64,000 nucleotides of DNA from Gemmatimonadota bacterium. Its GTDB lineage: Bacteria; Gemmatimonadota; Gemmatimonadetes; Palauibacterales; Palauibacteraceae. The stretch is from positions 3,520,001 through 3,584,000 of the forward strand of contig OZ220691.1 of the NCBI GenBank assembly GCA_965116475.1, in the 5' to 3' direction. The translations under genes were made by a program, and so were the position numbers. Shown here piece by piece: positions 29,970 to 58,207 of the stretch (position 1 is its first letter; every line of letters starts with the position of its first letter). The notes under the pieces are model-generated. The model ran no database searches, was not told the DNA's origin, and was given only the letters and a program-made list of their open reading frames with translations.

Positions 29970-29972
29970 GCC

Positions 29973-38411: not shown

Positions 38412-38539
38412 GGGATGTTCCGATTCACGGTGGACTTCGGTCCGTCTGCCGAACATCGTACGAAAGCGGGACACGCGCCGAAACGTCGCGTCCGCCCCCT
38501 GTTGACCCTCCACCGGCCCGATTGGAGCTTCCACTCCCC

Positions 38540-41897: not shown

Positions 41898-42074
41898 CTT
41901 GGCGCATAAGCGGGGTTCCGGACCTTCCGGCAGCCCCGAAAACCGTGGACCAGCGTCGCCGAATTCCTCGTCCGTGGCCGATTTGCGCGGGCTGCGTACA
42001 TCCGGGCTTCGCACCCGGGCGAGGTTGGTGCGAGCAGCGTGAACCGGCCGCAGCAAGCCGTCCAGCGGAGCGCC

Positions 42075-44363
42075 ATGTATCGAGAGGTATTCGTCCCGGT
42101 CGATAACTCGCGCGAGTCGGACTGGGCCGTGGACCGAGCCATCGAACTTTGCGCTCGCTCCGGTGGCCGCATCACCGGCTCCCACGTCTACGCCGCACGC
42201 CTCCACGACATCCGGTTCCGCCAGCTCGAGATCGGGCTCCCGGCCCAGTTCCAGGAGCCGGCGGAAATTCGCAGACAACGCAAGATCCACGACAAGCTGA
42301 TCGAGAAGGGGCTTCAGCTCATCTCCGACAGCTTCCTCGACCAGCTCCACCGCCGTTGCGCCGAAGCCGGGGTGACCCTCACGCGGCAGCTCCTCGAGGG
42401 CATCAACTACGAGGAGATCATCAACGAGGCGAACCGCGGCGGCGGGCGCCTCCCGAGCCTCATCGGCTTCGATCCCAACATCGCCCACAACTACGACGGC
42501 AGCGAGAAGCAGCGCACGGACGTCAAGCTGGGCGAGGACGGCCGCCTGCTCGCCGAAGACGAAGAGCAGGAGGAAAAGCTCGCCGGCACCTCCGGCCGCG
42601 ACTACGACCTCGTCACCATCGGCGCCCACGGCCTCGGGCGGCAGGAGCGGAGCCGCCTCGGCGGCGTCGTGGCGCGCGCGCTGCGCGGGATCGAGAAGGA
42701 CGCGCTCATCATCCGCGACGACCGGCCGCTGGAGGGCGGAAAGTGGCTCGTCGGCGTGGACGGCTCGGCCTACGCCTACAAGGGCCTGCGGATCGCGCTC
42801 GACATGGCCCGCGAATACGGCGCCAAGGTCTACATCGCGAGCGCCTTCGACGTGCAGTACCACCACGTCGTCTTCCACAACATCAAGGACGTGCTCTCGG
42901 TCCAGGCCTCGAAGGTGTTCAAGTTCGAGGAACAGGAAGAGCTCCACAACAACATCATCGACAAGGGCCTGCTCCGCCTCTGCAAGGCGAACATCAAGCG
43001 GGCGGAGGTGATGGCGAGCGAGTATCCCGAGGTCGAGATCGAGACCCAGGTGCTCATCGGGAAGCCCTTCGACGCGCTCCTGAAGTGGGCCGACGAGATC
43101 GACCCTTCGCTGCTCGTCGTGGCCCGCCACGGCTCGCACCGCATCGAGGGCACGGACATCGGCTCGCAGGCCGACAACCTCGTCTCCCTCGCCGACACGA
43201 ACATCCTGCTCATCGGGACGGGGAACGTCCGGCCCGAGGAGATCCCCTGGATCGAGGAGGATGGCGAAGCCGGGCTCGAGTGGGCGCCCGAAGCGGAGGT
43301 GAGGATCCTGCGCGTGCCGCCGTTCGCGCTGGGGATCGCGCGCAAGGCCGTCGAGGAGTTCGTCCTCGAGCACTACGGCCCGGGGAGCCGTTACGCGGCC
43401 GCCTTCGTACCAAACCCGAAGGATGAGAAGCAGTACCGGACCTCCCGGCCGGCGGACGGAAACGCTGCGGACGGAAACGCTGCGGACGGCAAAGCCGCGA
43501 CCGGCAACGGGGCCAACGGCACGGCGCAGGTGGCGCGCGACGCCCTCGAGACCGGCGCGGCCCCGTCGATCGCCGAGGTCGGACAGGCCGCCAACGGGCG
43601 CGCCAACGGAGAGAAGGCCGAACTCTGGAACCGCGACCAGTTGCCCGTCGTGACCAACGAACGCCTCGACGAGGCGATCAAGAAGCTCCTTCCGACCCAC
43701 ATGCAGCTCGTGATGGGGATCGGCGATGCGGAGGAACTCGCTCTCGCCGAGGTGAAGGCGGACGAGGCGATGAAGCGGACCGTCGTGGAGACGAGCGACG
43801 CCGACGCCTTCGAGGCCCCGCTCCCCGTCATGGCGAAGTGCCCGGTGACGGACAACCAGATCCCTCGCGACCGCACGGCCGCCGACCCGATCGTCTGGAC
43901 GCACGAGGCGTTCGACCGGCTGGGCCGCGTGCCGCTCATCGCCCGCCCCCTCGCGCGCAACACCGTGGAGCGCTTCGCCCGCGACCAGGGCATGTGGCGC
44001 GTGACGACGCTCGTGATGGATGAGAACAAGGACGCGATGATCGCGGCCGACGAGTTCGACCTCGACACGATGCTCGTGATGTTCAACGAGTTGAAGGCGA
44101 AGCAGGCCCGGGCCGAAGCCGCCGGCGTCGACGGCATGAGCGAGGAGATGAAGCGCTTCATCGAGGAGGCCAAGGCCTCGGGCGTGACGCGCTGTCCGAT
44201 CCGCGACATCGAGCAGCAGGCGGACGACTGTCCCGTCGACTTCAAGATGGTCTCGCCCGACGACGCCCGCGCGGCGGTAGAGAAGTTCGCGCGCACGGAA
44301 CTGGGAGACGAGACGGGAGCGGACACCCCTCCCGCTTCGGAGCAGGGATCTCCCGCGAAGTGA
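42075..44363 (+). CDS. Universal stress protein (two USP domains) with two PCP_red-like domains
   Basis: VFVPVDNS, LVTIGAHG, LVGVDGS, LLVVARHG; WAPEAE...VPPF and WTHEAF...VPLI segments. Confidence 0.85.
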   Translation: MYREVFVPVDNSRESDWAVDRAIELCARSGGRITGSHVYAARLHDIRFRQLEIGLPAQFQEPAEIRRQRKIHDKLIEKGLQLISDSFLDQLHRRCAEAGVTLTRQLLEGINYEEIINEANRGGGRLPSLIGFDPNIAHNYDGSEKQRTDVKLGEDGRLLAEDEEQEEKLAGTSGRDYDLVTIGAHGLGRQERSRLGGVVARALRGIEKDALIIRDDRPLEGGKWLVGVDGSAYAYKGLRIALDMAREYGAKVYIASAFDVQYHHVVFHNIKDVLSVQASKVFKFEEQEELHNNIIDKGLLRLCKANIKRAEVMASEYPEVEIETQVLIGKPFDALLKWADEIDPSLLVVARHGSHRIEGTDIGSQADNLVSLADTNILLIGTGNVRPEEIPWIEEDGEAGLEWAPEAEVRILRVPPFALGIARKAVEEFVLEHYGPGSRYAAAFVPNPKDEKQYRTSRPADGNAADGNAADGKAATGNGANGTAQVARDALETGAAPSIAEVGQAANGRANGEKAELWNRDQLPVVTNERLDEAIKKLLPTHMQLVMGIGDAEELALAEVKADEAMKRTVVETSDADAFEAPLPVMAKCPVTDNQIPRDRTAADPIVWTHEAFDRLGRVPLIARPLARNTVERFARDQGMWRVTTLVMDENKDAMIAADEFDLDTMLVMFNELKAKQARAEAAGVDGMSEEMKRFIEEAKASGVTRCPIRDIEQQADDCPVDFKMVSPDDARAAVEKFARTELGDETGADTPPASEQGSPAK
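43452..43496 (+). repeat. 15-bp in-frame tandem repeat x3 (ADGNA ADGNA ADGKA)
   Basis: GCGGACGGAAACGCT x2 plus a degenerate third copy. Confidence 0.85.
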
Positions 44364-45772
44364 CCGGGGCCCCGCTGGCCGCGGAAGCTGTCGCGAACCG
44401 GAGCCCCGCCGTGCCCGGTCCACTCTGGGACGGCGCCCCCGCCGCCGCCTCTCCGCGGGCCGAACCCGATGTCGCCATCCCGCACGTCGTCGCCTGGAAC
44501 CTGACGCGCCGCTGCAACCTCGCCTGCGCCCATTGCTACATCTCCGCCGGGTCGTGGCACGCGGCCGCGGAGGAACTCGATACCGCGGCCTGCTTCCGCG
44601 TCATCGATCAGATCCTCGAAACGAGCCCGTCGCCGCTCCTCATCCTCAGCGGGGGGGAGCCCCTCGTGCGCTCCGACCTCGAGGAGATCGCGGCCTACGC
44701 CTCGGGGCGCGGCGCCACGGTGACGGTGGGCACGAACGGCACCGGGCTCACCGATGAACGCATCGCGTCGCTGAAGGCGGCCGGCGTCCAGGGCGTCGCC
44801 CTCAGCGTCGACTCCCTCGATCCGCGCTATCACGACCGCTTCCGGCACGGGGAGGGCGCGCTCGAAGACACGCTCGCCGCGGTCGACCGGCTGGCCGAGC
44901 ACCGCCTCGACTTCCTCATCCAGTTCACGGTCACGCGCGGGAACCGGGATGAACTCGACGCCATGGCCGCCTGGGCGGATGCGAAGGGCGCCGTCTGTCT
45001 CAACGTCTACTTCCTCGTCGAGACGGGGCGGGGCGAGGGGATGCGCGGCCTCGCCCCCGCGGAGAACGACGAACTCGTGGCCCGGCTGGCCGAACTCCAG
45101 CGCGACTACCGCGGGCGGCTCATGATCCGCTCCAAGTGCCAGCCCCAACTCATGCGACACGTGTACGAGCGTGATCCCGACTCTCCGCTCCTGAACTACC
45201 GCACGCGCTGCCCCTGCGGCGTCCAGTACTGCCGCATCACGCCCGAGGGCAAGGTGACGCCGTGCCCGTACATGCCGGAGGTGGCCGGCGACCTCTCCGA
45301 CGCCTCCTTCGGCGAGATCTGGCGCGAGGCGACCGTCTTCCGCCTGCTGCGCGACGGCGAACCGGGCGGGAAGTGCGGGCGCTGCGAGTACCGCGCGCTG
45401 TGCGGCGGGTGCCGCGCCCGCGCCTACGCGGTGGACGGAGACCTGCTCGGTCCCGATCCTTCCTGCGCCTACGAGCCGGCGCCCGGCGTCGCGGATGCGA
45501 TCGAGCCCAGCCGGCCCGTCACGTACGGCTCGGCGGCCGAACAGGAGCTTCCGTGGAGCCCGGAGGCCGATGCCCGGCTCAACGCCATTCCCAGCTTCGT
45601 GCGCGGCGTGGTCGCACAGCGGGTGGAGAAGTTCGCGCGCGCGCGCGGCCATGCCCAGGTGACGCTCGACACGATGACCGAGGTCCGCCGCGCCATGCCG
45701 GTGGACTTTTCGAAACGGATGCCCTTCTTCGCCCGGAGTCGGCGGAGCGCGGGACGGGGGGATAAGCGATGA
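44360..45772 (+). CDS. NirJ/AhbCD-like radical SAM-SPASM protein with C-terminal PCP_red domain
   Basis: WNLTRRCNLACAHC, LSGGEPL, SPASM CPCG..C..PC..KCGRC..LCGGCRARAY. Confidence 0.88.
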   Translation: MTGAPLAAEAVANRSPAVPGPLWDGAPAAASPRAEPDVAIPHVVAWNLTRRCNLACAHCYISAGSWHAAAEELDTAACFRVIDQILETSPSPLLILSGGEPLVRSDLEEIAAYASGRGATVTVGTNGTGLTDERIASLKAAGVQGVALSVDSLDPRYHDRFRHGEGALEDTLAAVDRLAEHRLDFLIQFTVTRGNRDELDAMAAWADAKGAVCLNVYFLVETGRGEGMRGLAPAENDELVARLAELQRDYRGRLMIRSKCQPQLMRHVYERDPDSPLLNYRTRCPCGVQYCRITPEGKVTPCPYMPEVAGDLSDASFGEIWREATVFRLLRDGEPGGKCGRCEYRALCGGCRARAYAVDGDLLGPDPSCAYEPAPGVADAIEPSRPVTYGSAAEQELPWSPEADARLNAIPSFVRGVVAQRVEKFARARGHAQVTLDTMTEVRRAMPVDFSKRMPFFARSRRSAGRGDKR

Positions 45773-47541
45773 AGCGCTGGTTGACCCGTGGCGTCGCCAC
45801 CCGCGGCGTGCTGCTCGCCGCCCTCGCACTGGCGGTCGCCCTCCCGCTCCTCGCGCAGGTGCCGGGGCCCGACTACGGCGAGTTCAACTTCCTCGGGCTC
45901 GACCGCCGCGGCGCGGTCTGGATCGCGGCCCAGCTCCACCTGCTGTTCGCGGCCTTCGTGCTCGGCGTGCCGATGTTCGCGGTCGTCATCGAGGCGATCG
46001 GGATGTTCGGCGGGGATGAGAAGTACGACAAGCTCGCCAAGGAATTCACCCGCCTCCTGCTCGTGGCCTACAGCGCGACCGCGATCTGGGGCGCGATCCT
46101 CGTCTTCTTCCTCTCGACGCTCTACCCCCGCTTCTGGGCCTACCTGACGGCGATCTTCGCGCCGTCGATGTGGGTGTACGCGGGCCTCTTCTTCCTCGAA
46201 TCGTTCACGCTCTACCTCTACTACTACGGGTGGGACGCGTGGAAGAAGGGCGCGGCGAAGAAGGCCCACTGGTGCCTGGGGATCATGCTCAACGTCTGGG
46301 GCACGATCGTCATGTTCATCGCGAACGGGTGGCTCACCTACATGATGAGCCCGCCCGAGGGACTCACGGCCGACACGGCCCCGCAGACCGTCCAGCTGTG
46401 GAGCGCGATCAACAACGCGACCTGGATGCCGATCAACATCCATCGGCTGTTGGCGAACGTGGTGTTCGGCGGCGCGGTGGTCGGCGCCTACGCGGCGTAC
46501 CGCTTCCTCACGAGCAAGACCGACGAGGAGCGCGCGCACTACGACTGGATGGGCTACACCGGCAACCTGATCGCGATCGGCGCGCTCATCGTCCTCCCCT
46601 TCGCCGGCTACTGGCTCGGGCGGGAGATCTACGAGTTCAGCCAGCAGATGGGCATCACGATGATGGGCGGCTTCATGAGCTGGCTCTGGATCATCCAGGC
46701 CTTCCTCATCGGCATCCTCTTCCTCGCGGGCAACTACTACCTGTGGATCGGCATGGGACGGATCCCCGGGGCGGAACGGTTCCAGCCCTACATCAAGTGG
46801 ATGCTGCTCGTGCTGGTCCTCGGGGTCATCGTGTGGGCCACGCCGAACACGATGATCGCGGATCGCGATGAGATCGCGGCCATGGGAGGGATCCGGCACC
46901 CGTTCCTGCAGGTGCTCGGGGTGATGAGCGCGAAGAACACGGCCGTCAACCTCATGATCCTGACGACGTTCCTCTCCTTCCTCATGTACCGGAGGGCGAA
47001 CAAGGATCCCGTGGTGCCGTGGGCCCGCGCGGGGACGATGCTGCAGGGCGCGGCCTTCGCGCTGTGCGCCGTCATCGTCGTGTTCTACGGCGTGTACGGC
47101 TACTTCGTGACCGCGATCGTGCGGATCGGCTTCTCCGTCTACCAGGTGCTCGCGGTTCTGGCGACGATCCTGTTCGTCATCGGGATCGACATGGCGATGC
47201 TGCGGGGCGCCAGATCCCGGGGCGAGATCCGGTGGGGGCGGATGCCGGACCGGTCGCAGTACGCGCTGCTCATCCTCGCCGTCACGTTTACGTGGCTCAT
47301 GGGGCTGATGGGCTTCGCGCGCAGCGGGATCCGGCAGCACTGGCACGTCTACGAAGTGATCCGTGACACGAGCGAGCAGGCGTTCACGCCGGCGCTCGGG
47401 CCCGCGGCGACGATCATCAGCATCTGCGTGCTCATCTTCTTCGCGCTCGTCGGCCTCATATTCTGGCTCGGCGGCCTGGCCGAACGCTCCGTCTACCAGG
47501 AAGCCGAGGCGAAGGTGAAGGCCGGGCAGGAGGGGCGATGA
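45769..47541 (+). CDS. Cytochrome bd-like oxidase subunit I homolog (no subunit II in window)
   Basis: QLHLLF (His), FFLES, ANGWLTYMMSP, IHRLLAN (His), GIRQHW. Confidence 0.8.
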   Translation: MKRWLTRGVATRGVLLAALALAVALPLLAQVPGPDYGEFNFLGLDRRGAVWIAAQLHLLFAAFVLGVPMFAVVIEAIGMFGGDEKYDKLAKEFTRLLLVAYSATAIWGAILVFFLSTLYPRFWAYLTAIFAPSMWVYAGLFFLESFTLYLYYYGWDAWKKGAAKKAHWCLGIMLNVWGTIVMFIANGWLTYMMSPPEGLTADTAPQTVQLWSAINNATWMPINIHRLLANVVFGGAVVGAYAAYRFLTSKTDEERAHYDWMGYTGNLIAIGALIVLPFAGYWLGREIYEFSQQMGITMMGGFMSWLWIIQAFLIGILFLAGNYYLWIGMGRIPGAERFQPYIKWMLLVLVLGVIVWATPNTMIADRDEIAAMGGIRHPFLQVLGVMSAKNTAVNLMILTTFLSFLMYRRANKDPVVPWARAGTMLQGAAFALCAVIVVFYGVYGYFVTAIVRIGFSVYQVLAVLATILFVIGIDMAMLRGARSRGEIRWGRMPDRSQYALLILAVTFTWLMGLMGFARSGIRQHWHVYEVIRDTSEQAFTPALGPAATIISICVLIFFALVGLIFWLGGLAERSVYQEAEAKVKAGQEGR

Positions 47542-48374
47542 CGAACCTGAAGATCCTGTTCACGGTCGTGGCGACGCTGGCGGTGTTCACCTTCGTGGCG
47601 AACGTGATCCCGCAGGTGCAGTCGGCGGTCCCCCGGGAGATCGTGCTCAGCGCGGACATGCCGCCGGAGGAGCTGGCGGCGATCGGCGAGGAGATCTACG
47701 CGGGGGCGGGCGGCTGCACGGCGTGCCACGGCCTCGGCACGCGCGCGCCGGACCTCCTCGGCGTGGTGGGCGGCGTGTGCGCGACGCGCGTCCCCGGGCA
47801 GAACTGCAAGGACTATCTGTGGGAGTCTCTGGTCAACCCGACGGCCTACATCGTGGAGGGCTTCGACCCCATCATGATCGACCAGAGCATCGTTTCGTCG
47901 CAGGCCGAGTTGTGGACGCTCGTCGCCTTCCTGCAATCGCAGGGCGGCGAGATCACGGTGAACGCGGACGACTTCGCCGCGGCGCTGGCGGCCGACGACG
48001 CGGCCGCGTCCGCTCCGCCGCCTCCCGTCGTGACCGACCCGAACCAGGTCGACGCGGTCGCGCTGATCACGGCACAGGGCTGCCTCGCCTGCCACGCGCT
48101 CGGCGGGGAGGGCGGCATGGTCGCGCCCCCCTTCGAGGAGTTGCGGGGACAGGATCCCGCCTTCGTCCGCGAGGGGATCGTGGATCCGATGGCGACGATC
48201 AACGAGGAATACTCGACCTTTGCCGGGACGATGCCGACGATCTTCGGCGATCTCATGTCTCCGGTCGAACTCGATGTGCTGGTGGACTTCTTCGTGGGCG
48301 GCTCGGGAGCCGGGGAGGAGGCTCCCGGCGACGCGGCGGAAGTCCCGCCCGACAGCGCGGGAGGTAGCCGATGA
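47538..48374 (+). CDS. Membrane-anchored diheme cytochrome c
   Basis: CTACH and CLACH; N-terminal TM helix. Confidence 0.88.
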   Translation: MTNLKILFTVVATLAVFTFVANVIPQVQSAVPREIVLSADMPPEELAAIGEEIYAGAGGCTACHGLGTRAPDLLGVVGGVCATRVPGQNCKDYLWESLVNPTAYIVEGFDPIMIDQSIVSSQAELWTLVAFLQSQGGEITVNADDFAAALAADDAAASAPPPPVVTDPNQVDAVALITAQGCLACHALGGEGGMVAPPFEELRGQDPAFVREGIVDPMATINEEYSTFAGTMPTIFGDLMSPVELDVLVDFFVGGSGAGEEAPGDAAEVPPDSAGGSR

Positions 48375-49168
48375 AGCGTTACCTGTCCCATCCGTTCTGG
48401 CAGGGCGCGATCGTCATCGTCGTGTCCTACATAGCGTTCGAGTGGGTGATCGGCTACGTGCTCCCGGTGATCGGCGTGGCGAGCGCTCCCGTGCCGAGTT
48501 CGGTCATCCTCCAGTACATGCTCACCGTCCTGGTGGGCATCGTCCTCTACATGAGCGCGGACGAGGCGCGCTGGAAGCGCTTCAAGAAGCCGATCCACGA
48601 GACGATGGTGCAGCCGGACCGCCGGACCGTGCGGGGCATCCTCATGGTGGCGATCCCGGCGATCATCGGCTGGCTCGCCTACGAGCGGGTGAAACCCAGC
48701 TACGCCGCGCCGGCCACGTTGCGCGCCGTCCACCCCGCGCCGCCGAACCAGCTCACCTTCCGCGGCGAGACGATCGAACTCACGGGGCTCGAGAACCCGC
48801 TGCACGAGGAAGGCTCCCTGGAGGAGCACCTGGCGGTCGGGAAGCGGATCTACGTGCGCAACTGCGTGCCCTGCCACGGCGACCTGCTCGACGGACAGGG
48901 CCACTACGCGCCGGCCTTCAACCCGGTGCCCGCCGACTTCACGAGTTCGGGCAACCTGCCCCAGCTCACGGAGAGCTACGTGTTCTGGCGCATCGTCAAG
49001 GGCGGCCCCGGCCTCCCGCGCGAGGGCACGCCGTGGGATTCGGCCATGCCGGCGTGGGAGACGATCCTCGAGCAGGACGAAATCTGGGCGACGATCCTCT
49101 ATCTCTACGACCAGACGGGGTTCACGCCGCGCACCTGGGAGGAAGAAGGGGAAGGGGGGCACGAATGA
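48371..49168 (+). CDS. Membrane-bound monoheme cytochrome c
   Basis: Three TM helices; CVPCHG; SAMPAW axial Met. Confidence 0.88.
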   Translation: MKRYLSHPFWQGAIVIVVSYIAFEWVIGYVLPVIGVASAPVPSSVILQYMLTVLVGIVLYMSADEARWKRFKKPIHETMVQPDRRTVRGILMVAIPAIIGWLAYERVKPSYAAPATLRAVHPAPPNQLTFRGETIELTGLENPLHEEGSLEEHLAVGKRIYVRNCVPCHGDLLDGQGHYAPAFNPVPADFTSSGNLPQLTESYVFWRIVKGGPGLPREGTPWDSAMPAWETILEQDEIWATILYLYDQTGFTPRTWEEEGEGGHE

Positions 49169-50745
49169 GCGCGCCCCGGCGCCGGGCCCGCGGGATGTTC
49201 GCGCTTGGCGGACTCGTCGTCATCGCCGCCGCCGCCGCGCCCCCGCTATCGGGACAGGAAGACGCGGCCGCCGCGGGCAAGGTCGTGTACGACCGCTGGT
49301 GCGCGGAGTGTCACGGCGAAACCGGGCAGGGAGATGGCTCCGCCGCCGCCTCGATGCTGCCCCGGCCCCGGGACTTCACGCAGGCGCTCTACCAGATCCG
49401 GACGACCGGCAGCGGACAGCTCCCGACGGACGCGGACATCCGGTTCGCGATCGAGAACGGGCTCCCCGGGACGACGATGCCGGGCTGGCCCAATCTCACG
49501 GACCAGGAGATCGACGACCTCATCGTCTATCTGAAGAGCTTTTCGCGGTTCTTCGGCCAGGGTCCGGCCCCCGAACCGCTCGACTTCGGGTCCGATCCCG
49601 GCGGCGGTCCCGCGGCGATCGAGGCGGGGGCGGCCGCCTACCTCACGATGCTGTGCGAGGAGTGCCACGGCCTGTCCGGGCGGGGAGACGGGACCTCGGC
49701 GCCGACGCTGGAGGATTGGCGGGGCCTCCCCATTCGCGCGGCCGACCTCACGGAGGCGTGGGTGCTCAACGGCGGCAGCAGCGTCGAGGACATGCACACC
49801 CGGATGTTGACCGGACTGGACGGCACGCCGATGCCGTCGGCGATCGACGCCATGAACTCGGGCGTCGTCTCGCCCGATGAAGTCTGGCAGTTGGCGCACT
49901 ATCTCGCCTCCCTCGGGCCGCGCGAGATACCGCCGCTGCGCGAGGTGATCCGCGTGGGCCGCGCCGAAGGCGGGCTCCCCGCCGACGGCGGAGAGGAGGC
50001 GTGGGCGGGCGTCGAGGCCTTCTACTTCCCGATGTCGGGCCAGGTCGTCCAGGTGCCCCGCAACTTCGCGCCGACGGTCGACGGGCTCTGGGTGCAGGGG
50101 CTGCACGACGGGAACGACATGGCGCTGCGCGTCCAGTGGAACGACCCATCGAACAGCCCGGACCCGAACTGGGACGAGTGGCAGGACAAGATCACGACCG
50201 CGCTCGACCTCGATGGCGCGGAACCGATCGCCCTCGACAGCGCCGGCGCACCGACCGTGCGACCCCCGGATGCGGTGCTCCTCCAGTTCCCCTTCGAGCT
50301 GCCGGAGGGCACCGACCGGCCGTACTTCCTGATGGGGGACGCCCGCGAACCGGTCTACGTCTGGACGTGGGATTCGGAGACCGGTCTCGGCGCGGGCCGC
50401 GGCCGCGGCCTGGACTCCGTCGAACCGCTCGCGGAGGACCCGGTAACGGGGGAAGCGACGTGGGAGGAGGGGCGCTGGACGCTCTATCTGCGCCGTCCGA
50501 TCGAGCTCGAAAGCGACGGTCTCGACTTCGTCGAGGGCACGCCGACGCCCATCGCTTTCCAGGCGTGGGACGGGTCCAGCGCCGAGGTCGGGAAGCGCAG
50601 CTCCGTGAGCACGTGGTACTACATTCTTCTCGAACCTCCGGCATCCAGCACGGTCGTCGTTACGCCCCTGCTGGCCATGCTCTTGACGGGGGCCTTCGGT
50701 CTCGTTCTCGTGCGCCGGGCCCAGGACCGCCGGAGGGATGGCTAA
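49165..50745 (+). CDS. Diheme cytochrome c fused to EB_dh/DOMON-like heme-b domain
   Basis: CAECH, CEECH; LRVQWNDP, DAVLLQFP, PYFLMGD, AFQAWDG..E.GKRS; C-terminal TM helix. Confidence 0.82.
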   Translation: MSAPRRRARGMFALGGLVVIAAAAAPPLSGQEDAAAAGKVVYDRWCAECHGETGQGDGSAAASMLPRPRDFTQALYQIRTTGSGQLPTDADIRFAIENGLPGTTMPGWPNLTDQEIDDLIVYLKSFSRFFGQGPAPEPLDFGSDPGGGPAAIEAGAAAYLTMLCEECHGLSGRGDGTSAPTLEDWRGLPIRAADLTEAWVLNGGSSVEDMHTRMLTGLDGTPMPSAIDAMNSGVVSPDEVWQLAHYLASLGPREIPPLREVIRVGRAEGGLPADGGEEAWAGVEAFYFPMSGQVVQVPRNFAPTVDGLWVQGLHDGNDMALRVQWNDPSNSPDPNWDEWQDKITTALDLDGAEPIALDSAGAPTVRPPDAVLLQFPFELPEGTDRPYFLMGDAREPVYVWTWDSETGLGAGRGRGLDSVEPLAEDPVTGEATWEEGRWTLYLRRPIELESDGLDFVEGTPTPIAFQAWDGSSAEVGKRSSVSTWYYILLEPPASSTVVVTPLLAMLLTGAFGLVLVRRAQDRRRDG

Positions 50746-50775
50746 AGCAACGGTGAAGCAACGGTGAAGCAACGG
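50745..50775 (+). repeat. 11-bp tandem repeat AAGCAACGGTG x~2.8
   Basis: Directly visible right after the stop codon. Confidence 0.85.
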
Positions 50776-50829
50776 GTAAGGGCTCTCAACAGCCGATAGC
50801 GCAACAGCTTCTTGTACGGAGGTAAGTCA

Positions 50830-51690
50830 ATGCGATCGCATTTCTGGAACCGCTCGGCCGCCCTGCTGGCCGTCGCGGCGATGGCCGCCTGTGGCGGCGG
50901 CGGCGGATCGTCCGAAGGTGCCGCGGACGACGCGGGCGAGGCGGCCCCGGCCGCGGCGGCGGTGGATCCGTCCACGGTGGGGACGATCTCGGGCATGGCC
51001 AACTTCGGAGGGATGGTCCCGACGATGGAGGCCATCGACATGTCGGCCGAGGCGGATTGCGCCGCCGGCTACGGCGCGGACGGGCCCATGGCCCAGAGCG
51101 TCCTCGTGTCCGAAGGCGGCCTCGCCAACGTGTTCGTCTACCTGAGCGAAGGCGTCTCCGGCGCGCCGGCCGCGTCCGGCGCCGCGGCGCTCGACCAGGT
51201 GAACTGCCGCTACACGCCGCACGTGCTCGGCGTGCAGAGCGGTCAGGACATCGAGATCTCGAACAGCGACAATCTGCTCCACAACATCAACGCCACGCCG
51301 ACCGAGAACCGCGGCTTCAACATCAGCCAGCCGCGGGCGGGGATCACGAGCACGCAGCGCTTCCAGGTGGCGGAGGTGATGGTGCCGGTGCGCTGCGACG
51401 TGCACGGCTGGATGCAGGCGTACATCGGTGTCGTCGACCACCCGTACTTCGCGGTGACGGGCGCCGACGGGAGGTTCTCGATCGCCGACGTTCCCGCCGG
51501 TGACTACACGCTGACGGCGTGGCACGAGGAGTTCGGCACGATGACGACGAACGTGACCGTCATGGCGGGCGAGATGGCCGTGGCCACCTTCGACTACAAC
51601 GCCGAGATGATGGGCGCCGATGTCCCGCTGGGCGAGGCGCTCGTCCTCGGGCACGGTACGAACCGCATCCGGGTGGAGCGCACCCAGTAA
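50830..51690 (+). CDS. Lipoprotein with cupredoxin-like and carboxypeptidase-regulatory-like domains
   Basis: Lipobox MAAC; LDQVNCRYTPHV, LHNIN, CDVHGWM, VPAGDYTLTAWHE. Confidence 0.78.
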   Translation: MRSHFWNRSAALLAVAAMAACGGGGGSSEGAADDAGEAAPAAAAVDPSTVGTISGMANFGGMVPTMEAIDMSAEADCAAGYGADGPMAQSVLVSEGGLANVFVYLSEGVSGAPAASGAAALDQVNCRYTPHVLGVQSGQDIEISNSDNLLHNINATPTENRGFNISQPRAGITSTQRFQVAEVMVPVRCDVHGWMQAYIGVVDHPYFAVTGADGRFSIADVPAGDYTLTAWHEEFGTMTTNVTVMAGEMAVATFDYNAEMMGADVPLGEALVLGHGTNRIRVERTQ

Positions 51691-51790
51691 CTCCGGGGGC
51701 GGGACCCGGCGGCCCGAACGGCCGTCCGGTCCCGCTCGCGTTGCCGTTCATCCGAAGGGCTCATCTGGCTCATCTGGAAGGAGATCGCTC

Positions 51791-52462
51791 GTGGATTGGG
51801 CGCTGCCCCCGAACTATTCGACATTCGGCGTCGTGATCGACCAGCTGTTCTGGATCATCCTCGTCATCACCGGCATCGCGTTCCTCCTCGTGGAGGGCGG
51901 GATCGTCTGGTTCTGCGTCAAGTACCGGGGACGCGAAGGGGCGAGAGCGCACTACACGCACGGATCGAACCGGCTGGAGATCATCTGGACGGTGATCCCC
52001 GCGATCATCATCGCGATCCTCGGCGCCTATTCGGCGGTCGTGTGGAACGACATCAAGGGAAGCTCCAACCGTCCTGCCGACGCCCTCGAATTCCTCGTCG
52101 TCGGCAAGCAGTTCGAGTGGAACATCACCTACCCCGGAGTCGATGAGACGCTGGGGACGGGCGACGACTTCACGGTCCGCAACCAGTTCCATTTCCCGGT
52201 GAACGAGGACATCACGATCCTGCTCGAGTCCGAGGACGTGATCCACTCCTTCTTCATCCCCGAACTCCGCGTGAAGCAGGACGCGGTGCCGGGCATGACC
52301 ATCCCGGTGTGGTTCGACGCGACCCAGACCGGGAACTTCGAGATCGCGTGCGCCGAGCTTTGTGGCCTGGGCCACTACTACATGATGGCGAGCGTGACCG
52401 TGCACAGCGCGGCGGACTTCGACGCCTGGCAGGCCAGCCAGGCGCCGGCCGCCGCCCAGTGA
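51791..52462 (+). CDS. coxB: Cytochrome c oxidase subunit II
   Basis: LEIIWTVIP, DVIHSF, CuA motif CAELCGLGHYYM. Confidence 0.94.
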   Translation: MDWALPPNYSTFGVVIDQLFWIILVITGIAFLLVEGGIVWFCVKYRGREGARAHYTHGSNRLEIIWTVIPAIIIAILGAYSAVVWNDIKGSSNRPADALEFLVVGKQFEWNITYPGVDETLGTGDDFTVRNQFHFPVNEDITILLESEDVIHSFFIPELRVKQDAVPGMTIPVWFDATQTGNFEIACAELCGLGHYYMMASVTVHSAADFDAWQASQAPAAAQ

Positions 52463-52477
52463 TCGAGAAAGGCTGAT

Positions 52478-54244
52478 ATGGCGACGATCGTAGCGGAGGC
52501 GACCGGGCAGGCGATCCTGCACGAGGAGCACGAGCAGTCCTTCCTGCGCAAGTACATCTTCTCGACCGACCACAAGGTCATCGCGATCCAGTTCCTGATC
52601 TACACGCTGTTCTTCCTCATGATCGGCGGACTGCTGGCGATGCTCATGAGGTACCAGATCGCGTGGCCGGCGCGGGGCGAGCTGCCGCTGGGCGGGATCT
52701 TCCCCGAGAGCATGGTCGCGAGCGGGTACATCCTGCCGGAGTTCTACAATGCGCTCGTCACGATGCACGGCTCGGTGATGGTCTTCCTCGCCATCATGCC
52801 GATGCTCGTGGGCGTGTGGGCGAACTACCTCATCCCGCTCCAGCTGGGCACGCACGACATGGCGTTCCCGCGGCTCAACATGCTCTCCTTCTGGGCCATG
52901 GTGCCCGCGGGCATCCTCACGCTGGCGAGTTTCTTCGTCGTCGGAGGCGCGGCGGGGGCCGGCTGGACGCTGTACGCGCCGCTGAGCGCCCGCCCCGACC
53001 TGTCCGGCGTCGGACTCGGGCAGATCCTGTGGCTGGCCGCGCTCGTCTTCATCGGGCTCTCATCGATTCTCGGATCGGTGAACTACATCACCACGACGAT
53101 CAACATGCGCGCCCCGGGCATGACCTGGATGCGCATGCCGCTCACCATCTGGTCGCTGTTCATCACGGCCATCCTCGCGCTGCTTGCGATGCCCGTCCTG
53201 TCGGCGGCCGGGATCATGCTCATCTTCGACCAGACCATCGGGACGAGCTTCTTCCTCCCGGAGGGCGGGGGACAGCCGCTCCTCTGGCAGCACCTGTTCT
53301 GGTTCTTCGGCCACCCGGAGGTCTACATCCTCATCCTCCCGGCCATGGGCTTCACCTCCGAGATCCTCTCCGTGGGTTCGCGGAAGCCGGTGTTCGGCTA
53401 CAAGGCGATGGTCCTGGCGCTCGTCTCGATCGCCTTCCTCGGGTTCATCGTGTGGGGTCACCACATGTTCCAGAGCGGGATGAACCCGATGCTGGGACTC
53501 ACGTTCACGGTCTCGACGCTCTTCATCGCCGTGCCCTCGGCGATCAAGACGTTCAACTGGATGGGCACGATGTGGCGCGGGAACCTCCAGCTCCACTCGG
53601 CGATGCTGTTCGCGATCGGGTTCGTGGCGATGTTCGCGATCGGAGGCCTGTCGGGCGTCTTCATGGCCTCGACGCCGGTCGACATCTACATCCACGACAC
53701 GTACTTCATCGTGGCGCACATCCACTACGTGCTCTTCGGCGGAAGCCTCTTCGCGCTCTTCGGGGCGATCTACTTCTGGTATCCGAAGATGTTCGGACGG
53801 ATGATGAACGAGACGCTGGGCAAGATCCATTTCTGGCTCACGTTCGTCTTCTTCAACCTGGTCTTCTTCCCGATGCACGGCGTGGGGATGGTGGGGATGA
53901 TGCGGCGCATCTACGACTCCACCGGCTACGCGCACCTGCAGGGGATCGAGGACACGAACGCGCTCATCACGTGGTCGGCGTTCGGGCTCTTCGCATCCGG
54001 CTTCCTGTTCGCGTTCAACTTCTTCTGGAGCCTGAAGAAGGGGAGGAAGGCCGAGGCGAATCCGTGGAACGCGACGACGCTGGAGTGGCAGACGCCCTCG
54101 CCGCCGAAGCACGGCAACTGGGAGGAAGTCCCGGTCGTCTACCACGGTCCGCACGAGTACAGCCACCCGGATGTGGAGGACAAGGACTGGCTGGCGCAGA
54201 ACGAACGGCCGGATGTCGTGAGCCCGGCCGCCGGCAGCCACTAA
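52478..54244 (+). CDS. coxA: Cytochrome c oxidase subunit I (A1 type)
   Basis: STDHK, WFFGHPEVY, WGHHMF, HDTYFIVAHIHYV. Confidence 0.96.
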   Translation: MATIVAEATGQAILHEEHEQSFLRKYIFSTDHKVIAIQFLIYTLFFLMIGGLLAMLMRYQIAWPARGELPLGGIFPESMVASGYILPEFYNALVTMHGSVMVFLAIMPMLVGVWANYLIPLQLGTHDMAFPRLNMLSFWAMVPAGILTLASFFVVGGAAGAGWTLYAPLSARPDLSGVGLGQILWLAALVFIGLSSILGSVNYITTTINMRAPGMTWMRMPLTIWSLFITAILALLAMPVLSAAGIMLIFDQTIGTSFFLPEGGGQPLLWQHLFWFFGHPEVYILILPAMGFTSEILSVGSRKPVFGYKAMVLALVSIAFLGFIVWGHHMFQSGMNPMLGLTFTVSTLFIAVPSAIKTFNWMGTMWRGNLQLHSAMLFAIGFVAMFAIGGLSGVFMASTPVDIYIHDTYFIVAHIHYVLFGGSLFALFGAIYFWYPKMFGRMMNETLGKIHFWLTFVFFNLVFFPMHGVGMVGMMRRIYDSTGYAHLQGIEDTNALITWSAFGLFASGFLFAFNFFWSLKKGRKAEANPWNATTLEWQTPSPPKHGNWEEVPVVYHGPHEYSHPDVEDKDWLAQNERPDVVSPAAGSH

Positions 54245-54268
54245 ATCGCATGGAAGGGAACTGACGAG

Positions 54269-54883
54269 ATGGCACACGCCGCGACCGCAGGCCGGGTCCC
54301 CGAGAGAGGGCTCGATGTCTACACCCAGAAGGTGGGCATGTGGGTGTTTCTGTGCTCGGAGGTGATGTTCTTCGCGGGCCTCATCGGCTCGTACGTGGTG
54401 CTCCGTTTCGGGGCATCCGATACCTGGGCGGAGCCGAACGAGGTACTGGCGGTCCCCATCACCGCGTTCAACACCTTCCTCCTCATCTGCAGTTCGGTGA
54501 CGATGGTGAAGGCCTTCGCGGCCGCGCAGATGGGAGACCAGAAGGGGATCAAGCTCTGGCTCCTGTCGACGACGATCCTCGGAGCCACCTTCCTGGGCGT
54601 GCAGGTGTTCGAGTACACCGAACTCGTGCTGCACCAGTCGTGGCAGGGGAGCCACGGGTTCACGCCGGCGTCCGGGCTGTACGGGGCCACCTTCTACACG
54701 ATGACGGGCTTCCACGGCTTCCACGTCCTCCTCGGTGTGATCTGCCTCGCCTGGGCCACGATCCGCGCCTGGCGGGGCCACTGGGGCGCGGACAACACCC
54801 ACGGGATCGAGGTGCTCGGCCTCTACTGGCACTTCGTCGACCTCGTGTGGATCATCCTGTTCACGATCGTCTACCTCATCTAG
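54269..54883 (+). CDS. coxC: Cytochrome c oxidase subunit III
   Basis: FLCSEVMFF, TGFHGFHV, YWHFVDLVW. Confidence 0.94.
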   Translation: MAHAATAGRVPERGLDVYTQKVGMWVFLCSEVMFFAGLIGSYVVLRFGASDTWAEPNEVLAVPITAFNTFLLICSSVTMVKAFAAAQMGDQKGIKLWLLSTTILGATFLGVQVFEYTELVLHQSWQGSHGFTPASGLYGATFYTMTGFHGFHVLLGVICLAWATIRAWRGHWGADNTHGIEVLGLYWHFVDLVWIILFTIVYLI

Positions 54884-54926
54884 CCAGACACCTGGGGCTG
54901 TTGGCCGAGAGATACGGAGCGAACGA

Positions 54927-55232
54927 ATGAGTGAAGCCGGAGGACACGCGGCGGGCGCCGCGGACGATCACGGGCACGAGCACCCGAAGTACATGCTCAT
55001 CTGGCTGTACCTGGCCATCCTCACGGCCCTCGAGGTGGGGGTGGTCTACCTCGATATTCCGAAGTGGATGATCGTTACGTCGCTGCTCATCATGGCGGGG
55101 TGGAAGGCGCTGCTCGTCGCGCTCTACTACATGCACCTGAAGTTCGAACCCAACCGTTTGCGGCTGGTGGCGCTGGCGCCGCTTCCGGCCGTGGCCATCA
55201 TGATCATCGCGATCATGATGGAGTACGTGTAG
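54927..55232 (+). CDS. Cytochrome c oxidase subunit IV
   Basis: LTALEV, KALLVALYYMHLKFE. Confidence 0.88.
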   Translation: MSEAGGHAAGAADDHGHEHPKYMLIWLYLAILTALEVGVVYLDIPKWMIVTSLLIMAGWKALLVALYYMHLKFEPNRLRLVALAPLPAVAIMIIAIMMEYV

Positions 55233-56417: not shown

Positions 56418-56462
56418 GCCCATGCTGACTCCGATGTTGACCCCATGCTGAGCCCATGCTGA
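56412..56462 (+). repeat. Degenerate ~11-bp tandem repeat TGCTGAGCCCA x~4.5
   Basis: Spans the stop of one gene and the start of the next. Confidence 0.75.
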
Positions 56463-58150: not shown

Positions 58151-58207
58151 AAGTCCCGAAAGATGGACCGACCGGGGGGCCGAAGCCACCCCGGCCTCGG
58201 AGAGGAC

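Follow-up and report, generated by a model that had tools for sequence, protein, structure and literature searches.

A bd-like membrane subunit encoded with cytochromes c and a cupredoxin ahead of an aa3 oxidase in a Gemmatimonadota genome: a candidate terminal reductase

A conserved respiratory gene cluster

A 64,000-nucleotide stretch of a Gemmatimonadota genome (here called the window) contains, between 38.5 and 56.2 kb, a single conserved respiratory gene cluster. Five proteins are encoded in its core (45769-51690): a membrane subunit of the bd-like type, three membrane-bound cytochromes c and a lipoprotein cupredoxin. On the reading we favour, at about an even chance, this core is a terminal reductase that takes its electrons from cytochrome c and cupredoxin and probably reduces O2; the adjacent aa3 oxidase would draw on the same periplasmic electron wire. 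By homology, the bd-like subunit is a Gemmatimonadota copy of the published OR-N (N1/N2-type, 14-helix) 'bd-like oxidase', an already known family. The host genome is one contig of 3.62 Mb, 96% complete, and relatives 93-94% identical are 'Candidatus Palauibacter' according to their source names. The genes of the cluster are as follows.

38522-39430, + strand: ParA/NUBPL (Mrp/NBP35-like) P-loop NTPase (Pfam PF10609, 210 bits)
39349-39870, + strand: small Cys-rich (CxxC...CxxC) protein with C-terminal PCP_red domain (Pfam PF08369, 43.8 bits)
42039-44363, + strand: cytoplasmic protein with tandem Usp and two PCP_red domains (Pfam Usp 100 bits, PCP_red 53.8 bits)
44360-45772, + strand: radical SAM/SPASM enzyme with C-terminal PCP_red domain (Pfam Radical_SAM, SPASM, PCP_red); 73/73 loci
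45769-47541, + strand: bd-like (OR-N, N1/N2-type) CydA homologue (Pfam PF01654 Cyt_bd_oxida_I, 76.8 bits)
47538-48374, + strand: membrane-anchored dihaem cytochrome c (CTACH and CLACH), one TM helix; 67/67 loci
48371-49168, + strand: monohaem cytochrome c (CVPCH), about four TM helices; 62/62 loci
49165-50745, + strand: dihaem cytochrome c (CAECH, CEECH) with EB_dh domain and C-terminal TM anchor; 58/58 loci
50812-51690, + strand: lipoprotein cupredoxin with type-1 copper site, between the cytochromes and cox; 53/54 loci
51620-52462, + strand: COX2 with CuA site, lacking a fused cytochrome c (Pfam COX2, COX2_TM; TIGR02866, 175 bits)
52478-54244, + strand: A-type COX1 (Pfam COX1, 507 bits; GHPEV at residue 278)
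54269-54883, + strand: COX3 (Pfam COX3, 90.5 bits)
54927-55232, + strand: COX4 (Pfam COX4_pro, 62 bits)
55246-56169, + strand: UbiA-family prenyltransferase in the position of haem O synthase CtaB (Pfam UbiA, 173.7 bits)

Four ATGA overlaps (at 45769, 47538, 48371 and 49165) link the bd-like gene with the radical SAM gene before it and the three membrane cytochromes c after it, and a GTGA junction lies at 44360. The gene order is repeated in every related Gemmatimonadota locus that reaches far enough, showing that the arrangement is not due to chance; 80 loci were compared overall, and locus counts such as those above refer to the related loci whose sequence reaches the gene concerned. Contigs from RNA libraries (4 runs, 3 studies) match the cluster at 90-99% likeness and span the rSAM/bd and cupredoxin/cox2/cox1 junctions, with DNA carry-over possible. 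An earlier note on this DNA had described the bd-like gene, the cytochromes and the cox operon, and every testable detail of that observation (ORFs, domains, junctions, motifs and genome searches) was confirmed. The copper lipoprotein at 50812-51690, the conserved upstream accessory set and the genomic ACIII and caa3 were absent from that note.

The bd-like subunit retains haem ligands and lacks the Q-loop

The bd-like subunit (590 aa) consists of an N-terminal helix and 13 TM helices, and has neither CxxCH (the haem c motif) nor a Q-loop. Its AF2 model (pLDDT 91) was compared with CydA 7ose_A (Z 35.4, rmsd 3.4, 347 aligned; VIA) and with ActF/ActC (Z 22.6, rmsd 3.4, 320 aligned). The alignment equates His57 with CydA His19/His21 and His225 with CydA His186, in line with the two retained haem-ligand histidines noted earlier. 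Both are found in 46/48 family members, Met386 in 40/48 and Glu144 in 39/48. His167 is also conserved, as are two extra periplasmic histidines, His377 and His526 (40/48 each). The E.GRQPW motif is indeed replaced: AEYGRQPW of E. coli CydA aligns with RSGIRQHW, with Ser519 at the Glu445 position. The canonical di-haem site is altered at Glu99 (Tyr137 in 45/48) and at Glu445 (Ser519 in 40/48), so a third haem may be absent or differently bound. A further conserved cluster, predicted to lie on the cytoplasmic side, comprises Glu75, His167 (47/48), Tyr258-Asp259-Trp260 (Asp259 45/48), Tyr324 (48/48), Trp326 and Arg409 (45/48), and, like the altered di-haem site, counts against a terminal reductase.

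Canonical cytochrome bd (CydAB; qOR1-3; E. coli 6rx4, Geobacillus 5doq) has the same subunit I fold (Z 32-35), and the window protein has equivalents of its His19, His186, Glu107 and Arg448. In contrast to canonical bd, the window protein has no CydB and no Q-loop, carries Tyr for Glu99 and Ser for Glu445, and adds four helices as well as the N-terminal helix; identity is 13-18%. The absence of cydB reported for the window extends to the 96%-complete single-contig genome, which gave no PF02322 match and one PF01654 match only, and the protein falls outside the canonical CydA grouping.

The OR-N family (N1/N2) was placed in the cytochrome bd superfamily by Murali, Gennis & Hemp (bioRxiv 10.1101/2021.01.16.426971), in the main text of which neither 'radical SAM' nor Gemmatimonadota occurs. 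In the parts of the literature available, OR-N proteins are read as putative cytochrome-c-oxidising O2 reductases. Examples are the 'bd-like oxidase' of Nitrospira (NIDE0901-like), that of Nitrospina and 'TO_1' of Ca. Manganitrophus. The window subunit is 39% identical over 539 residues to a protein sourced as Nitrospira sp. / Ca. Manganitrophaceae, which bears out the earlier comparison with bd-like/cytochrome c clusters of Nitrospira and Nitrospina. Like the proteins of Nitrospirota and Nitrospinota, it is a CydA homologue of 14 helices with no quinol site, no subunit haem c and no CydB, retains the His19 equivalent and has genes for cytochromes c and for a haem b (EB_dh) protein of the periplasm beside its own. 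It differs in the attached A1-type aa3 operon, a feature of all the Gemmatimonadota loci that none of the other sampled phyla shares, and in the cupredoxin lipoprotein and AhbD/NirJ-like radical SAM set of its cluster.

A membrane cytochrome c is predicted to dock in place of the Q-loop

The three membrane cytochromes, coupled by ATGA overlaps, proved as first described. Their CxxCH motifs give the core five haems c, and an EB_dh domain adds one probable haem b. This domain, in the 49165-50745 product (Pfam 48 bits; NCBIfam TIGR03477 82.8 bits), is type II DMSO-reductase gamma-like; the protein matched PDB entry 6h5l_B with E 2e-48, and its alignment with 2ivf_C covers the FLMGD Met. No other gene in the genome has an EB_dh match, and the window has no nxr-like gene, as the note had stated.

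In three of 150 representative relatives (P0122, P0125 and P0134), the bd-like protein carries a homologue of the 47538-48374 cytochrome as a C-terminal fusion, a Rosetta-stone arrangement. In the 4-TM monohaem cytochrome, CxxCH, Met226 and His121 are invariant (24/24 sequences). A complex model of this cytochrome with the bd-like subunit gave an ipSAE of 0.74, a mark attained by 116/157 solved complexes and 2/215 mismatched pairs, compared to 0.00 for the best of three controls. The docking runs share at least 55% of contacts, with a partner pLDDT of at least 78. The modelled interface is formed by bd-like residues 293-381, which include the inserted helices and the loop bearing Glu368 and His377. 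In this prediction, the 4-TM cytochrome docks where family-specific helices and a loop stand in for the Q-loop.

The cupredoxin domain of the lipoprotein sits inserted within a CarboxypepD_reg β-sandwich. Its AF2 model (pLDDT 82) aligns with plastocyanin (Z 12.1, rmsd 1.6, 85 residues), and the type-1 copper ligands His157, Cys195, His198 and Met201 are invariant in 55/55 sequences, and also in 30/30. Every carrier in the core belongs to a periplasmic type: cytochrome c, haem b or copper.

Associated oxidases, ACIII and upstream genes

From its sequence, the operon at 51620-55232 is an A1-type aa3 oxidase. As claimed, it is a full cox operon in which subunit II has no fused cytochrome: COX2 carries the CuA motif C-x3-C-x3-H-x2-M (CAELCGLGHYYM) and no CxxCH. 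The COX2 gene probably begins close to 51.8 kb. A UbiA-family gene lies behind cox4 in many related loci, but not all. A full ACIII is also encoded in the genome, as is a second oxidase, of caa3 type, whose COX1 is 45% identical to that of the window. ActD is present in 57/58 sampled bd-like-positive Gemmatimonadota genomes. In one genome, G137 (100% complete, one contig), the COX1 adjoining the module is the only COX1 match.

The upstream set (NUBPL-like ATPase, three PCP_red-domain proteins and AhbD/NirJ-like radical SAM enzyme) accompanies the module in three phyla. The NUBPL-like NTPase, probably an Fe-S cluster carrier serving the radical SAM enzyme, precedes the module in 56 related loci, among them the Acidobacteriota loci L092 and L093. 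The Cys-rich PCP_red protein is conserved in 56 loci; its true start is probably at 39427, where it would overlap the NTPase gene by ATGA. The Usp/PCP_red gene is upstream of the bd-like gene in all 64 Gemmatimonadota loci reaching its position and downstream of the module in L092 and L093. The radical SAM enzyme is by homology a paralogue of two haem-modifying enzymes, the haem b synthase AhbD and NirJ of haem d1 biosynthesis. These are its best NCBIfam matches (AhbD 270.2 bits, NirJ2 269.8 bits), covering the whole catalytic core (residues 43-373), and several homologues are named 'AdoMet-dependent heme synthase' by JGI. In contrast to AhbD/NirJ, it has an added PCP_red domain, and both scores are about half the equivalog cut-offs of 500 bits. 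Five bd-negative genomes contained no orthologue; the best match in them was 29-33% identical. Since the genome also encodes ChdC/HemQ, this enzyme is not the sole route to haem b.

In three loci outside Gemmatimonadota, no cox genes follow the module

In the Gemmatimonadota loci with reach, cox2 (54/54), cox1 (51/51) and cox3 (50/50) always lie downstream. Outside the phylum, no cox genes follow the module in the three loci with reach (L088, L092, L093), and the sole cox-like match there is a partial cox2 that lies on the other strand, at the distal edge of L093. Conservation of the cox linkage therefore holds within Gemmatimonadota, but not in these three loci. The Myxococcota locus L088 has two copies of the module, its own cupredoxin included, with cox not nearby. 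In Acidobacteriota (L092, L093), it stands behind ActA/ActB-like genes, in the usual place of the oxidase, and the operon contains no NrfD gene. The available part of PMC12342949 reports the same placement for OR-N5. Since NrfD is missing there and the bd-like fold is ActF/ActC-like, the bd-like subunit could replace a quinol-handling subunit.

In operons of ACIII with a downstream oxidase (act-cox), a cytochrome c oxidase is likewise joined to a copper protein and a haem wire in the periplasm; ACIII-auracyanin in Chloroflexus is an example of such logic. The likeness extends to the membrane subunit (ActF/ActC, Z 20-23) and to the ActA/ActB-like genes of Acidobacteriota. The window cluster differs from ACIII in having no NrfD, ActD or Fe-S subunit, and a separate complete ACIII is present in the genome.

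Alternative readings

The invariable position before a bona fide oxidase in Gemmatimonadota, by analogy the pattern of donor-acceptor pairs such as ACIII-caa3, counts against a terminal reductase, as does G137, whose adjacent COX1 is the only COX1 match. Both would suit an electron-input module, the first proposal of the earlier note, in which the bd-like subunit and cytochromes oxidise quinol or gather membrane electrons and pass them through cytochromes c and cupredoxin to CuA of aa3, as a third kind of complex III in a supercomplex. The window COX2 without a cytochrome c domain, when the genome's other A-type oxidase has one, the resemblance to NrfD-like ActF and the Acidobacteriota operons point the same way. 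We nevertheless consider such a role unlikely. There is no Q-loop and no recognisable quinol site; the equivalent of His19, which in the available literature is the ligand of the O2-binding haem in E. coli, is nearly always kept; and ACIII, in this genome and in nearly all bd-like-positive genomes sampled, leaves no gap for an input module to fill. Together with the cox-free Myxococcota copies, these observations leave a 'non-bc1, non-ACIII module feeding the oxidase' unsupported as first choice, and we rank a terminal reductase above it.

A second O2 reductase would be redundant beside aa3 and is hard to rationalise. The substitutions at Glu99 and Glu445 and the extra His377 and His526 suggest a remodelled site, and the closest named relative is 'Ca. 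Palauibacter denitrificans'. The same cytochrome c/copper wire might then serve reduction or detoxification of NO, nitrite-derived species or peroxide. This seems somewhat less probable still, since no linked nir, nor or nos was found in the 80 loci (tblastn with window proteins; Pfam scans of three loci), and the available literature is confined to O2 reduction and, by analogy, possible detoxification. Conservation on the predicted cytoplasmic face, and the cytoplasmic PCP_red/radical SAM set found with the module in three phyla, would fit a non-catalytic transmembrane conduit or sensor, whose haems link the periplasmic wire with the cytoplasm, where the PCP_red/Usp proteins or the radical SAM enzyme, for instance, could be the partner. 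However, His257 is kept in only 34/48, making a cytoplasmic-side bis-His haem doubtful, and such a function has no known precedent in the cytochrome bd superfamily. We regard it as improbable, the least favoured of the four.

Proposed role of the core

A terminal reductase, which the earlier note had offered as its second option, fits better than an input module, although it is unproven. For it speak the CydA fold and ligands, the missing Q-loop and CydB, the C-terminal fusions, the docking model, the invariant copper ligands, the periplasmic carrier types, the RNA-library contigs (DNA carry-over being possible), the presence of ACIII, the cox-free modules outside the phylum and the OR-N literature, as far as available. 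From gene content, homology, folds, conserved ligands, synteny, fusions and the supported docking model, we infer the following electron-flow steps, substrate and role of the radical SAM set. Electrons from the quinol pool would first reach ACIII, whose genes lie elsewhere in the genome, and then high-potential periplasmic carriers. The 4-TM monohaem cytochrome, occupying in the model the place of the quinol-binding Q-loop of canonical CydA, would hand them to a low-spin haem on His225/Met386 (b558 equivalent), and this to the haem on His57, the putative substrate reduction site, with protons arriving by a pathway through Glu144 (Glu107-equivalent). O2 is, by extrapolation, the most likely substrate. 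The NUBPL-like ATPase, PCP_red proteins and radical SAM enzyme would most likely serve the complexes by haem synthesis, tailoring or delivery. Under this reading, the core would correspond to the 'bd-like oxidase' (TO_1 / OR-N) known from Nitrospirota and Nitrospinota. The aa3 oxidase, without a cytochrome c domain of its own, would probably be fed by the same carriers, so that electrons on the one periplasmic wire would have two exits within the operon.

A bd-like gene, three cytochromes c and a cupredoxin gene precede an A1-type oxidase

The window has a G+C content of 69%, and the genes of the cluster form a run on the + strand with high GC3. ORF and domain analysis gave the following features.

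38522-39430, +, NUBPL/Mrp-like ATPase, further upstream
39427 (probable start), small Cys-rich PCP_red protein, with another ATGA overlap with the preceding gene
42039-44363, +, tandem-Usp protein with two PCP_red domains
44360-45772, +, radical SAM/SPASM protein with a PCP_red domain
45769-47541, +, bd-like subunit, 590 aa, Pfam Cyt_bd_oxida_I (PF01654) 76.8 bits, no CxxCH
47538-48374, +, dihaem cytochrome c, one TM helix, two CxxCH
48371-49168, +, monohaem cytochrome c (4-TM cytochrome), about four TM helices, one CxxCH
49165-50745, +, cytochrome c-EB_dh, two CxxCH, EB_dh domain, C-terminal TM helix
50812-51690, +, cupredoxin lipoprotein, between the cytochromes and cox
51620-55232, +, cox genes (COX1, COX2, COX3)

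The earlier observation of a bd-like gene coupled by ATGA overlaps to three membrane cytochromes is real and was carefully made, and this analysis confirmed it. ATGA overlaps were found at the radical SAM/bd-like junction, at the bd-like/cytochrome junction and at both cytochrome/cytochrome junctions, and the Usp/radical SAM pair upstream is joined by a GTGA overlap. The COX2 protein contains the CuA ligands and no CxxCH, in agreement with the statement that it lacks a fused cytochrome c. COX1 contains GHPEV, which we take to be a marker of type A1, and COX3 was also found. Judged by its sequence, which carries all of the features tested, 51620-55232 is an A1-type haem-copper cytochrome c oxidase.

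Several other genes in the window were recorded. A multisubunit Mrp/Mbh-like cation/proton antiporter set (24592-32010, +), some 14 kb ahead of the respiratory genes, comprises MnhE, MbhD/E, MnhB, a 4L-like subunit and three Proton_antipo_M subunits. A gene of the HmuY-like haem-binding lipoprotein family (37558-38202, -) is divergent from the NUBPL-like gene and was found near the cluster in 21 related loci by tblastn. The 320-aa product of 56456-57418 (+) is a multi-TM protein that matches nothing in Pfam or NCBIfam; its gene lies after cox/ctaB in many related loci, with 34-95% identity. Beyond it, a 1082-aa protein (58163-61411, +) has an MFS transporter domain as well as HEAT repeats and a cyclic-nucleotide-binding domain, with a response regulator and a histidine kinase downstream.

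The bd-like subunit is an OR-N protein

Sequence and profile alignments of the bd-like subunit to CydA reach only the N-terminal five to six helices and the RQ.W motif. The AF2 model (pLDDT 91, pTM 0.88) has an N-terminal helix (residues 8-28) and 13 long helices, 14 in all. It superposes on CydA chains over its whole length (Z 32-35, 347-361 residues), for example on 7ose_A with a VIA Z of 35.4 and an rmsd of 3.4 over 347 aligned residues. The NrfD-like ActF/ActC chains of alternative complex III (ACIII) match at Z 19-23 over ~320 residues, and PsrC superposes at Z 14.9. By chain order, the predicted additions to the nine-helix CydA core are helices 303-356 and 419-477. The model places the first of these additions (303-356), together with loop 357-385, between the equivalents of TM6 and TM7, the place of the Q-loop in CydA, and the quinol-binding Q-loop itself was found neither in the alignments to CydA nor in the model.

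The alignments place His57 at His19/His21 of CydA and His225 at His186. In a profile of 48 family members compared with E. coli CydA, Tyr137 lies at Glu99, Glu144 at Glu107 and Arg522 at Arg448. The canonical E.GRQPW motif was described in the earlier note as altered, and it is: RSGIRQHW aligns with AEYGRQPW of E. coli, with Ser519 at Glu445. Thus the canonical Glu99 and Glu445 of the di-haem site are absent, and the residues aligned there, Tyr137 and Ser519, are kept in 45/48 and 40/48 members. Because Met386 begins the helix after the inserted region of the model, it would be the equivalent of Met393; the roles of Glu445 and Met393 in CydA are taken here as generally assumed. Among the same 48 members, Tyr324 is kept in 48, His167 in 47, His57, Glu75, His225 and Lys389 in 46 each, and Glu368 and Arg518 in 45 each. 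Arg522 is kept in 42, His377, Met386 and His526 in 40 each, Glu144 in 39 and His257 in 34. Some of the conserved residues lie on the predicted cytoplasmic face.

There is no haem c motif (no CxxCH in 590 residues), which sets the protein apart from OR-C. The bd-like subunit shows every testable feature of OR-N, the bd-like branch of the cytochrome bd superfamily, namely the CydA fold, no quinol site, no haem c, a retained His19 and 14 helices, and it is of N1/N2 type, a designation in which N1 and N2 are not separated. It does not group with canonical CydA, and the genome has no cydB elsewhere; the earlier note had named the opposite outcome as counting against its reading. As described by Murali, Gennis and Hemp (bioRxiv 2021), OR-N proteins are CydA homologues without the quinol site, encoded in operons with alternative electron donors; N1 and N2 have 14 helices, His19 is always kept, and OR-N2 often lacks a second CydA-like gene. 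The single CydA-like gene of the source genome fits this OR-N2 description, within an assignment that does not separate N1 from N2.

The earlier note had pointed to similar bd-like/cytochrome c clusters in nitrite oxidisers, and this family is indeed already described as OR-N. In PMC10839748, PMC12342949, PMC10579370 and PMC5029188, OR-N proteins are putative, uncharacterised cytochrome-c-oxidising terminal oxidases of Nitrospirota/Nitrospinota. According to PMC9040806, the bd-like protein TO_1 of Ca. Manganitrophus is accompanied by a periplasmic cytochrome b, and TO_3 and TO_4 contain ACIII-like parts. Over 539 residues, the bd-like subunit shares 39% identity with a protein whose source is given as Nitrospira sp./Ca. 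Manganitrophaceae. In a quick tree, the Gemmatimonadota bd-like sequences formed one group (support 100) apart from the Nitrospira/Manganitrophaceae clades, with 17/45 branches open and the deep branches unresolved. No literature linking bd-like proteins with Gemmatimonadota was found, and the main texts searched, as far as they were available, did not mention the copper subunit, the haem-type radical SAM set or the aa3 fusion.

Predicted donors of the bd-like subunit

When the bd-like subunit was modelled in complex with the 4-TM monohaem cytochrome, the ipSAE was 0.74, and the best of three controls gave 0.00. The mark applied to ipSAE is reached by 116/157 solved complexes and 2/215 mismatched pairs, a calibration that is rough here, as our own alignments were used. 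The runs agreed in at least 55% of contacts, with a partner pLDDT of at least 78. The predicted interface comprises residues 293-381 of the bd-like subunit and, on the cytochrome, helices 27-68 and the invariant Arg118/His121-Pro-Ala-Pro-Pro stretch. The model supports binding of the 4-TM cytochrome to the bd-like subunit. Fusion of a dihaem cytochrome homologue to the C-terminus of the bd-like protein was seen in 3/150 representative relatives (P0122, P0125 and P0134).

The first cytochrome, with two haems, matches the dihaem protein 7zs0_A (E 6e-17), and the dihaem part of the third matches PDB 6h5l_B (E 2e-48). The EB_dh part of the third aligns with the ethylbenzene dehydrogenase gamma subunit, 2ivf_C, placing the Met of FLMGD on Met108 and a Lys two positions off Lys201; Met108 and Lys201 are presumably the haem b ligands of 2ivf_C.

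The product of 50812-51690 had no Pfam cupredoxin match, and a PDB sequence search returned nothing meaningful. His157, Cys195, His198 and Met201 are invariant in 55/55 homologues, and the ligand set (His...Cys-x2-His-x2-Met) is likewise invariant in a set of 30/30 that includes both Myxococcota copies. The AF2 model (pLDDT 82) has a cupredoxin fold at residues 122-208, of which 85 align with plastocyanin 1b3i_A at Z 12.1 (rmsd 1.6); amicyanin 1aac_A is matched at Z 11.2, and the strands on either side resemble the transthyretin-like domain of carboxypeptidase D (Z 10.6). The invariant ligands and the plastocyanin/amicyanin fold mark the product of 50812-51690 as a type-1 copper protein. A paralogue, 41.6% identical over 226 residues, is encoded on the same contig at G000:C1:2336941-2337618 (-).

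The source genome encodes a complete ACIII

The window lies within a single contig of 3.62 Mb, and the genome is 96.3% complete. The bd-like gene is its only PF01654 match. The earlier note had reported no cydB, and this holds for the whole of the 96.3%-complete, one-contig genome, where PF02322 has no match. A search of the genome for bc1, ACIII and nxr, as that note had proposed, recovered ACIII and neither of the others. No bc1-type cytochrome b (PF00033) was found in the genome. A complete ACIII is encoded at C1 1.245-1.253 Mb, with ActA-like c7, ActB, NrfD-like ActC, ActD and a monohaem c; the following ORF, without a match in Pfam, may encode ActF. The genome therefore does not lack a quinol:cytochrome c oxidoreductase. 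Within the window cluster there is neither cytochrome b/Rieske nor ActC with ActB and ActD.

The only EB_dh domain in the genome is that of the cluster cytochrome, and the four PF00384 (molybdopterin) matches all lie outside the window and away from the c-EB_dh gene; hence no nxr is present. The absence of nxr genes from the window had been stated before, and no type II DMSO-reductase alpha/beta genes adjoin EB_dh. Among molybdopterin genes elsewhere, G000:C1:1750227-1751495 (locus L007; 248 bits) contains one in-frame TGA and may encode a selenocysteine enzyme such as formate dehydrogenase, and G000:C1:2883939-2889644 (L012:7939-13644) encodes a Fe-S/NrfD fusion, then a molybdopterin subunit, then a TorD/NarJ-type chaperone.

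Three COX1-family genes were found in the source genome. The second oxidase, ~34 kb upstream of the window, has a subunit II with a fused cytochrome c, and its COX1 is 45% identical to that of the window. The third, distant haem-copper oxidase family gene is at G000:C1:2829759-2831989 (L014:7759-9989; COX1 84 bits), with a dihaem cytochrome c before it.

The module is conserved beyond Gemmatimonadota and the cox linkage is not

Relatives of the bd-like subunit number in the thousands: at least 7723 of 8000 scored candidates pass E 0.001, and 235 cluster representatives match at E 1e-30 or better. The best 120 relatives are 76-99% identical, and the closest, by source name, are from Candidatus Palauibacter and other Gemmatimonadota. 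We surveyed loci in one genome per species, using an 8-sequence alignment as the query. The survey confirmed 593 relatives, and 80 loci were analysed, 75 from Gemmatimonadota and five from other phyla. Neighbours were counted as loci where they were found over loci whose contig reaches the expected place.

Conservation of neighbouring genes (found/reached)
Tandem-Usp protein, 64/64
Radical SAM protein, 73/73
Dihaem cytochrome c, 67/67
4-TM cytochrome c, 62/62
Cytochrome c-EB_dh, 58/58
Cupredoxin lipoprotein, 53/54 (missing in the Gemmatimonadota locus L046)
cox2, 54/54
cox1, 51/51
cox3, 50/50

A NUBPL-like gene was found in 56 loci, and so was a small PCP_red gene. Across Gemmatimonadota loci, the bd-like subunits are 70-98% identical.

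Of the five loci from other phyla, three extend far enough for comparison: L088 from Myxococcota and L092 and L093 from Acidobacteriota. L088 contains two divergent module copies (L088:3403-16454), each with its own cupredoxin and cytochromes; one copy has a PCP_red protein, and there is no cox in the locus. The second L088 bd-like protein is 49% identical to that of the window over 448 residues. The module in L092 and L093 is directly preceded by genes for ActA-like and ActB-like proteins and for a monohaem c, and Usp-PCP_red and NUBPL-like genes lie downstream. L093 also contains genes for a GNAT protein, a small PCP_red protein and a radical SAM-PCP_red protein. A ferrochelatase gene and a flavin amine-oxidase (HemY-like) gene are divergent from the ActA/ActB-like genes (L092:4115-9118, L093:2741-9130). 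In both loci the operon lacks an NrfD gene and no cox comes after the module; the sole cox-like match is a partial cox2 that lies at the end of L093, on the other strand.

These outside-phylum loci indicate a core unit of the bd-like subunit, the three cytochromes and, where found (Gemmatimonadota, Myxococcota), the cupredoxin. The haem-type cytoplasmic set accompanies this unit across phyla, and the linkage to cox is a Gemmatimonadota feature. A lack of conserved cox linkage had been named as evidence against the earlier reading; the linkage is conserved in Gemmatimonadota (cox1 51/51), but no cox follows the modules of L088, L092 and L093.

The bd-like gene is present in 58/200 high-quality Gemmatimonadota genomes, from 29/98 genera, and ActD in 192/200, tallies that include the unpublished genomes G178, G053 and G093. 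Only one of the 58 bd-like-positive genomes, G181, lacks an ActD match. The presence of ActD in 192/200 sampled genomes rules out the module as the only quinol:cytochrome c link. Five complete bd-negative genomes have three to five COX1-family matches each, some under the Pfam cut-off. In G137, a bd-positive genome that is 100% complete on one contig, COX1 has a single match, the gene beside the module.

RNA-library contigs from four runs (three studies; sponge or marine metagenomes) match the cluster at 90-99% likeness and cover 30, 28, 29 and 23 of its 30 bins. Single contigs span the radical SAM/bd-like and cupredoxin/cox2/cox1 junctions. These data, which carry no transcript ends, strand or level and come from libraries that may contain DNA, are compatible with transcription of the cluster in relatives.

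The upstream genes form a haem-type set

Against NCBIfam, the radical SAM protein scores highest with AhbD (270.2 bits) and NirJ2 (269.8 bits), for which the cut-offs are 500. With a score below the equivalog cut-off, its sequence marks it as an AhbD/NirJ-related paralogue and not the equivalog. No orthologue was found in five complete bd-negative Gemmatimonadota genomes, where the best matches are 29-33% identical, and ChdC/HemQ is present in the source genome. Together, these two results rule out a housekeeping haem synthase. A search for PF08369/PCP_red/PCP reductase found nothing relevant in titles and the openings of abstracts.

Possible function of the module

We give even chances to the reading that the bd-like module is a terminal reductase that takes electrons from cytochrome c and cupredoxin, most likely for the reduction of O2, and shares periplasmic carriers with the adjacent aa3 oxidase. 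This reading draws on the retained b558-type and His19-type haem ligands, on the loss of the quinol site and the modelled docking of a cytochrome in its place, on modules that stand without cox in other phyla, and on the presence of ACIII. Electrons would pass from periplasmic cytochrome c/cupredoxin to the bd-like subunit and most likely onto O2, and the aa3 oxidase next door would draw on the same carriers. The earlier note proposed that the bd-like subunit and its cytochromes instead feed that oxidase. Such an input module would be in keeping with the invariable cox linkage inside Gemmatimonadota, the ActAB-like genes without NrfD in Acidobacteriota and the resemblance of the bd-like fold to NrfD-like subunits; given the modules without cox and the ACIII, we consider it rather unlikely.

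A reductase for a substrate other than O2 we judge improbable. That the bd-like subunit is a transmembrane conduit to the cytoplasmic PCP_red/radical SAM proteins, the set that travels with it, seems to us very unlikely. A broader proposal is rather doubtful: the radical SAM protein, the three PCP_red proteins and the NUBPL-like ATPase would make or insert a tailored haem specifically for OR-N, and the bd-like subunit and aa3 would form a hybrid supercomplex with two reducing sites and a shared cytochrome c/cupredoxin wire. If true, it would account for the presence of the cytoplasmic set alongside the module in Gemmatimonadota, Acidobacteriota and partly Myxococcota, and the tailored haem would give a first handle on how a bd-type catalytic haem is made.

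To our knowledge, no OR-N bd-like complex has been purified, and none was found in the titles and abstract openings of the best literature matches from 2021 on. In organisms that oxidise nitrite or manganese, OR-N complexes are regarded as the main oxidases. Gemmatimonadota, which include heterotrophs that should be easier to grow than nitrite oxidisers, carry the OR-N module as a compact, highly conserved operon. The predicted docking site of the donor cytochrome in the Q-loop place and the dedicated blue-copper subunit offer experimental handles, and the linked haem-type radical SAM system could tell which haem the bd-like enzyme uses.
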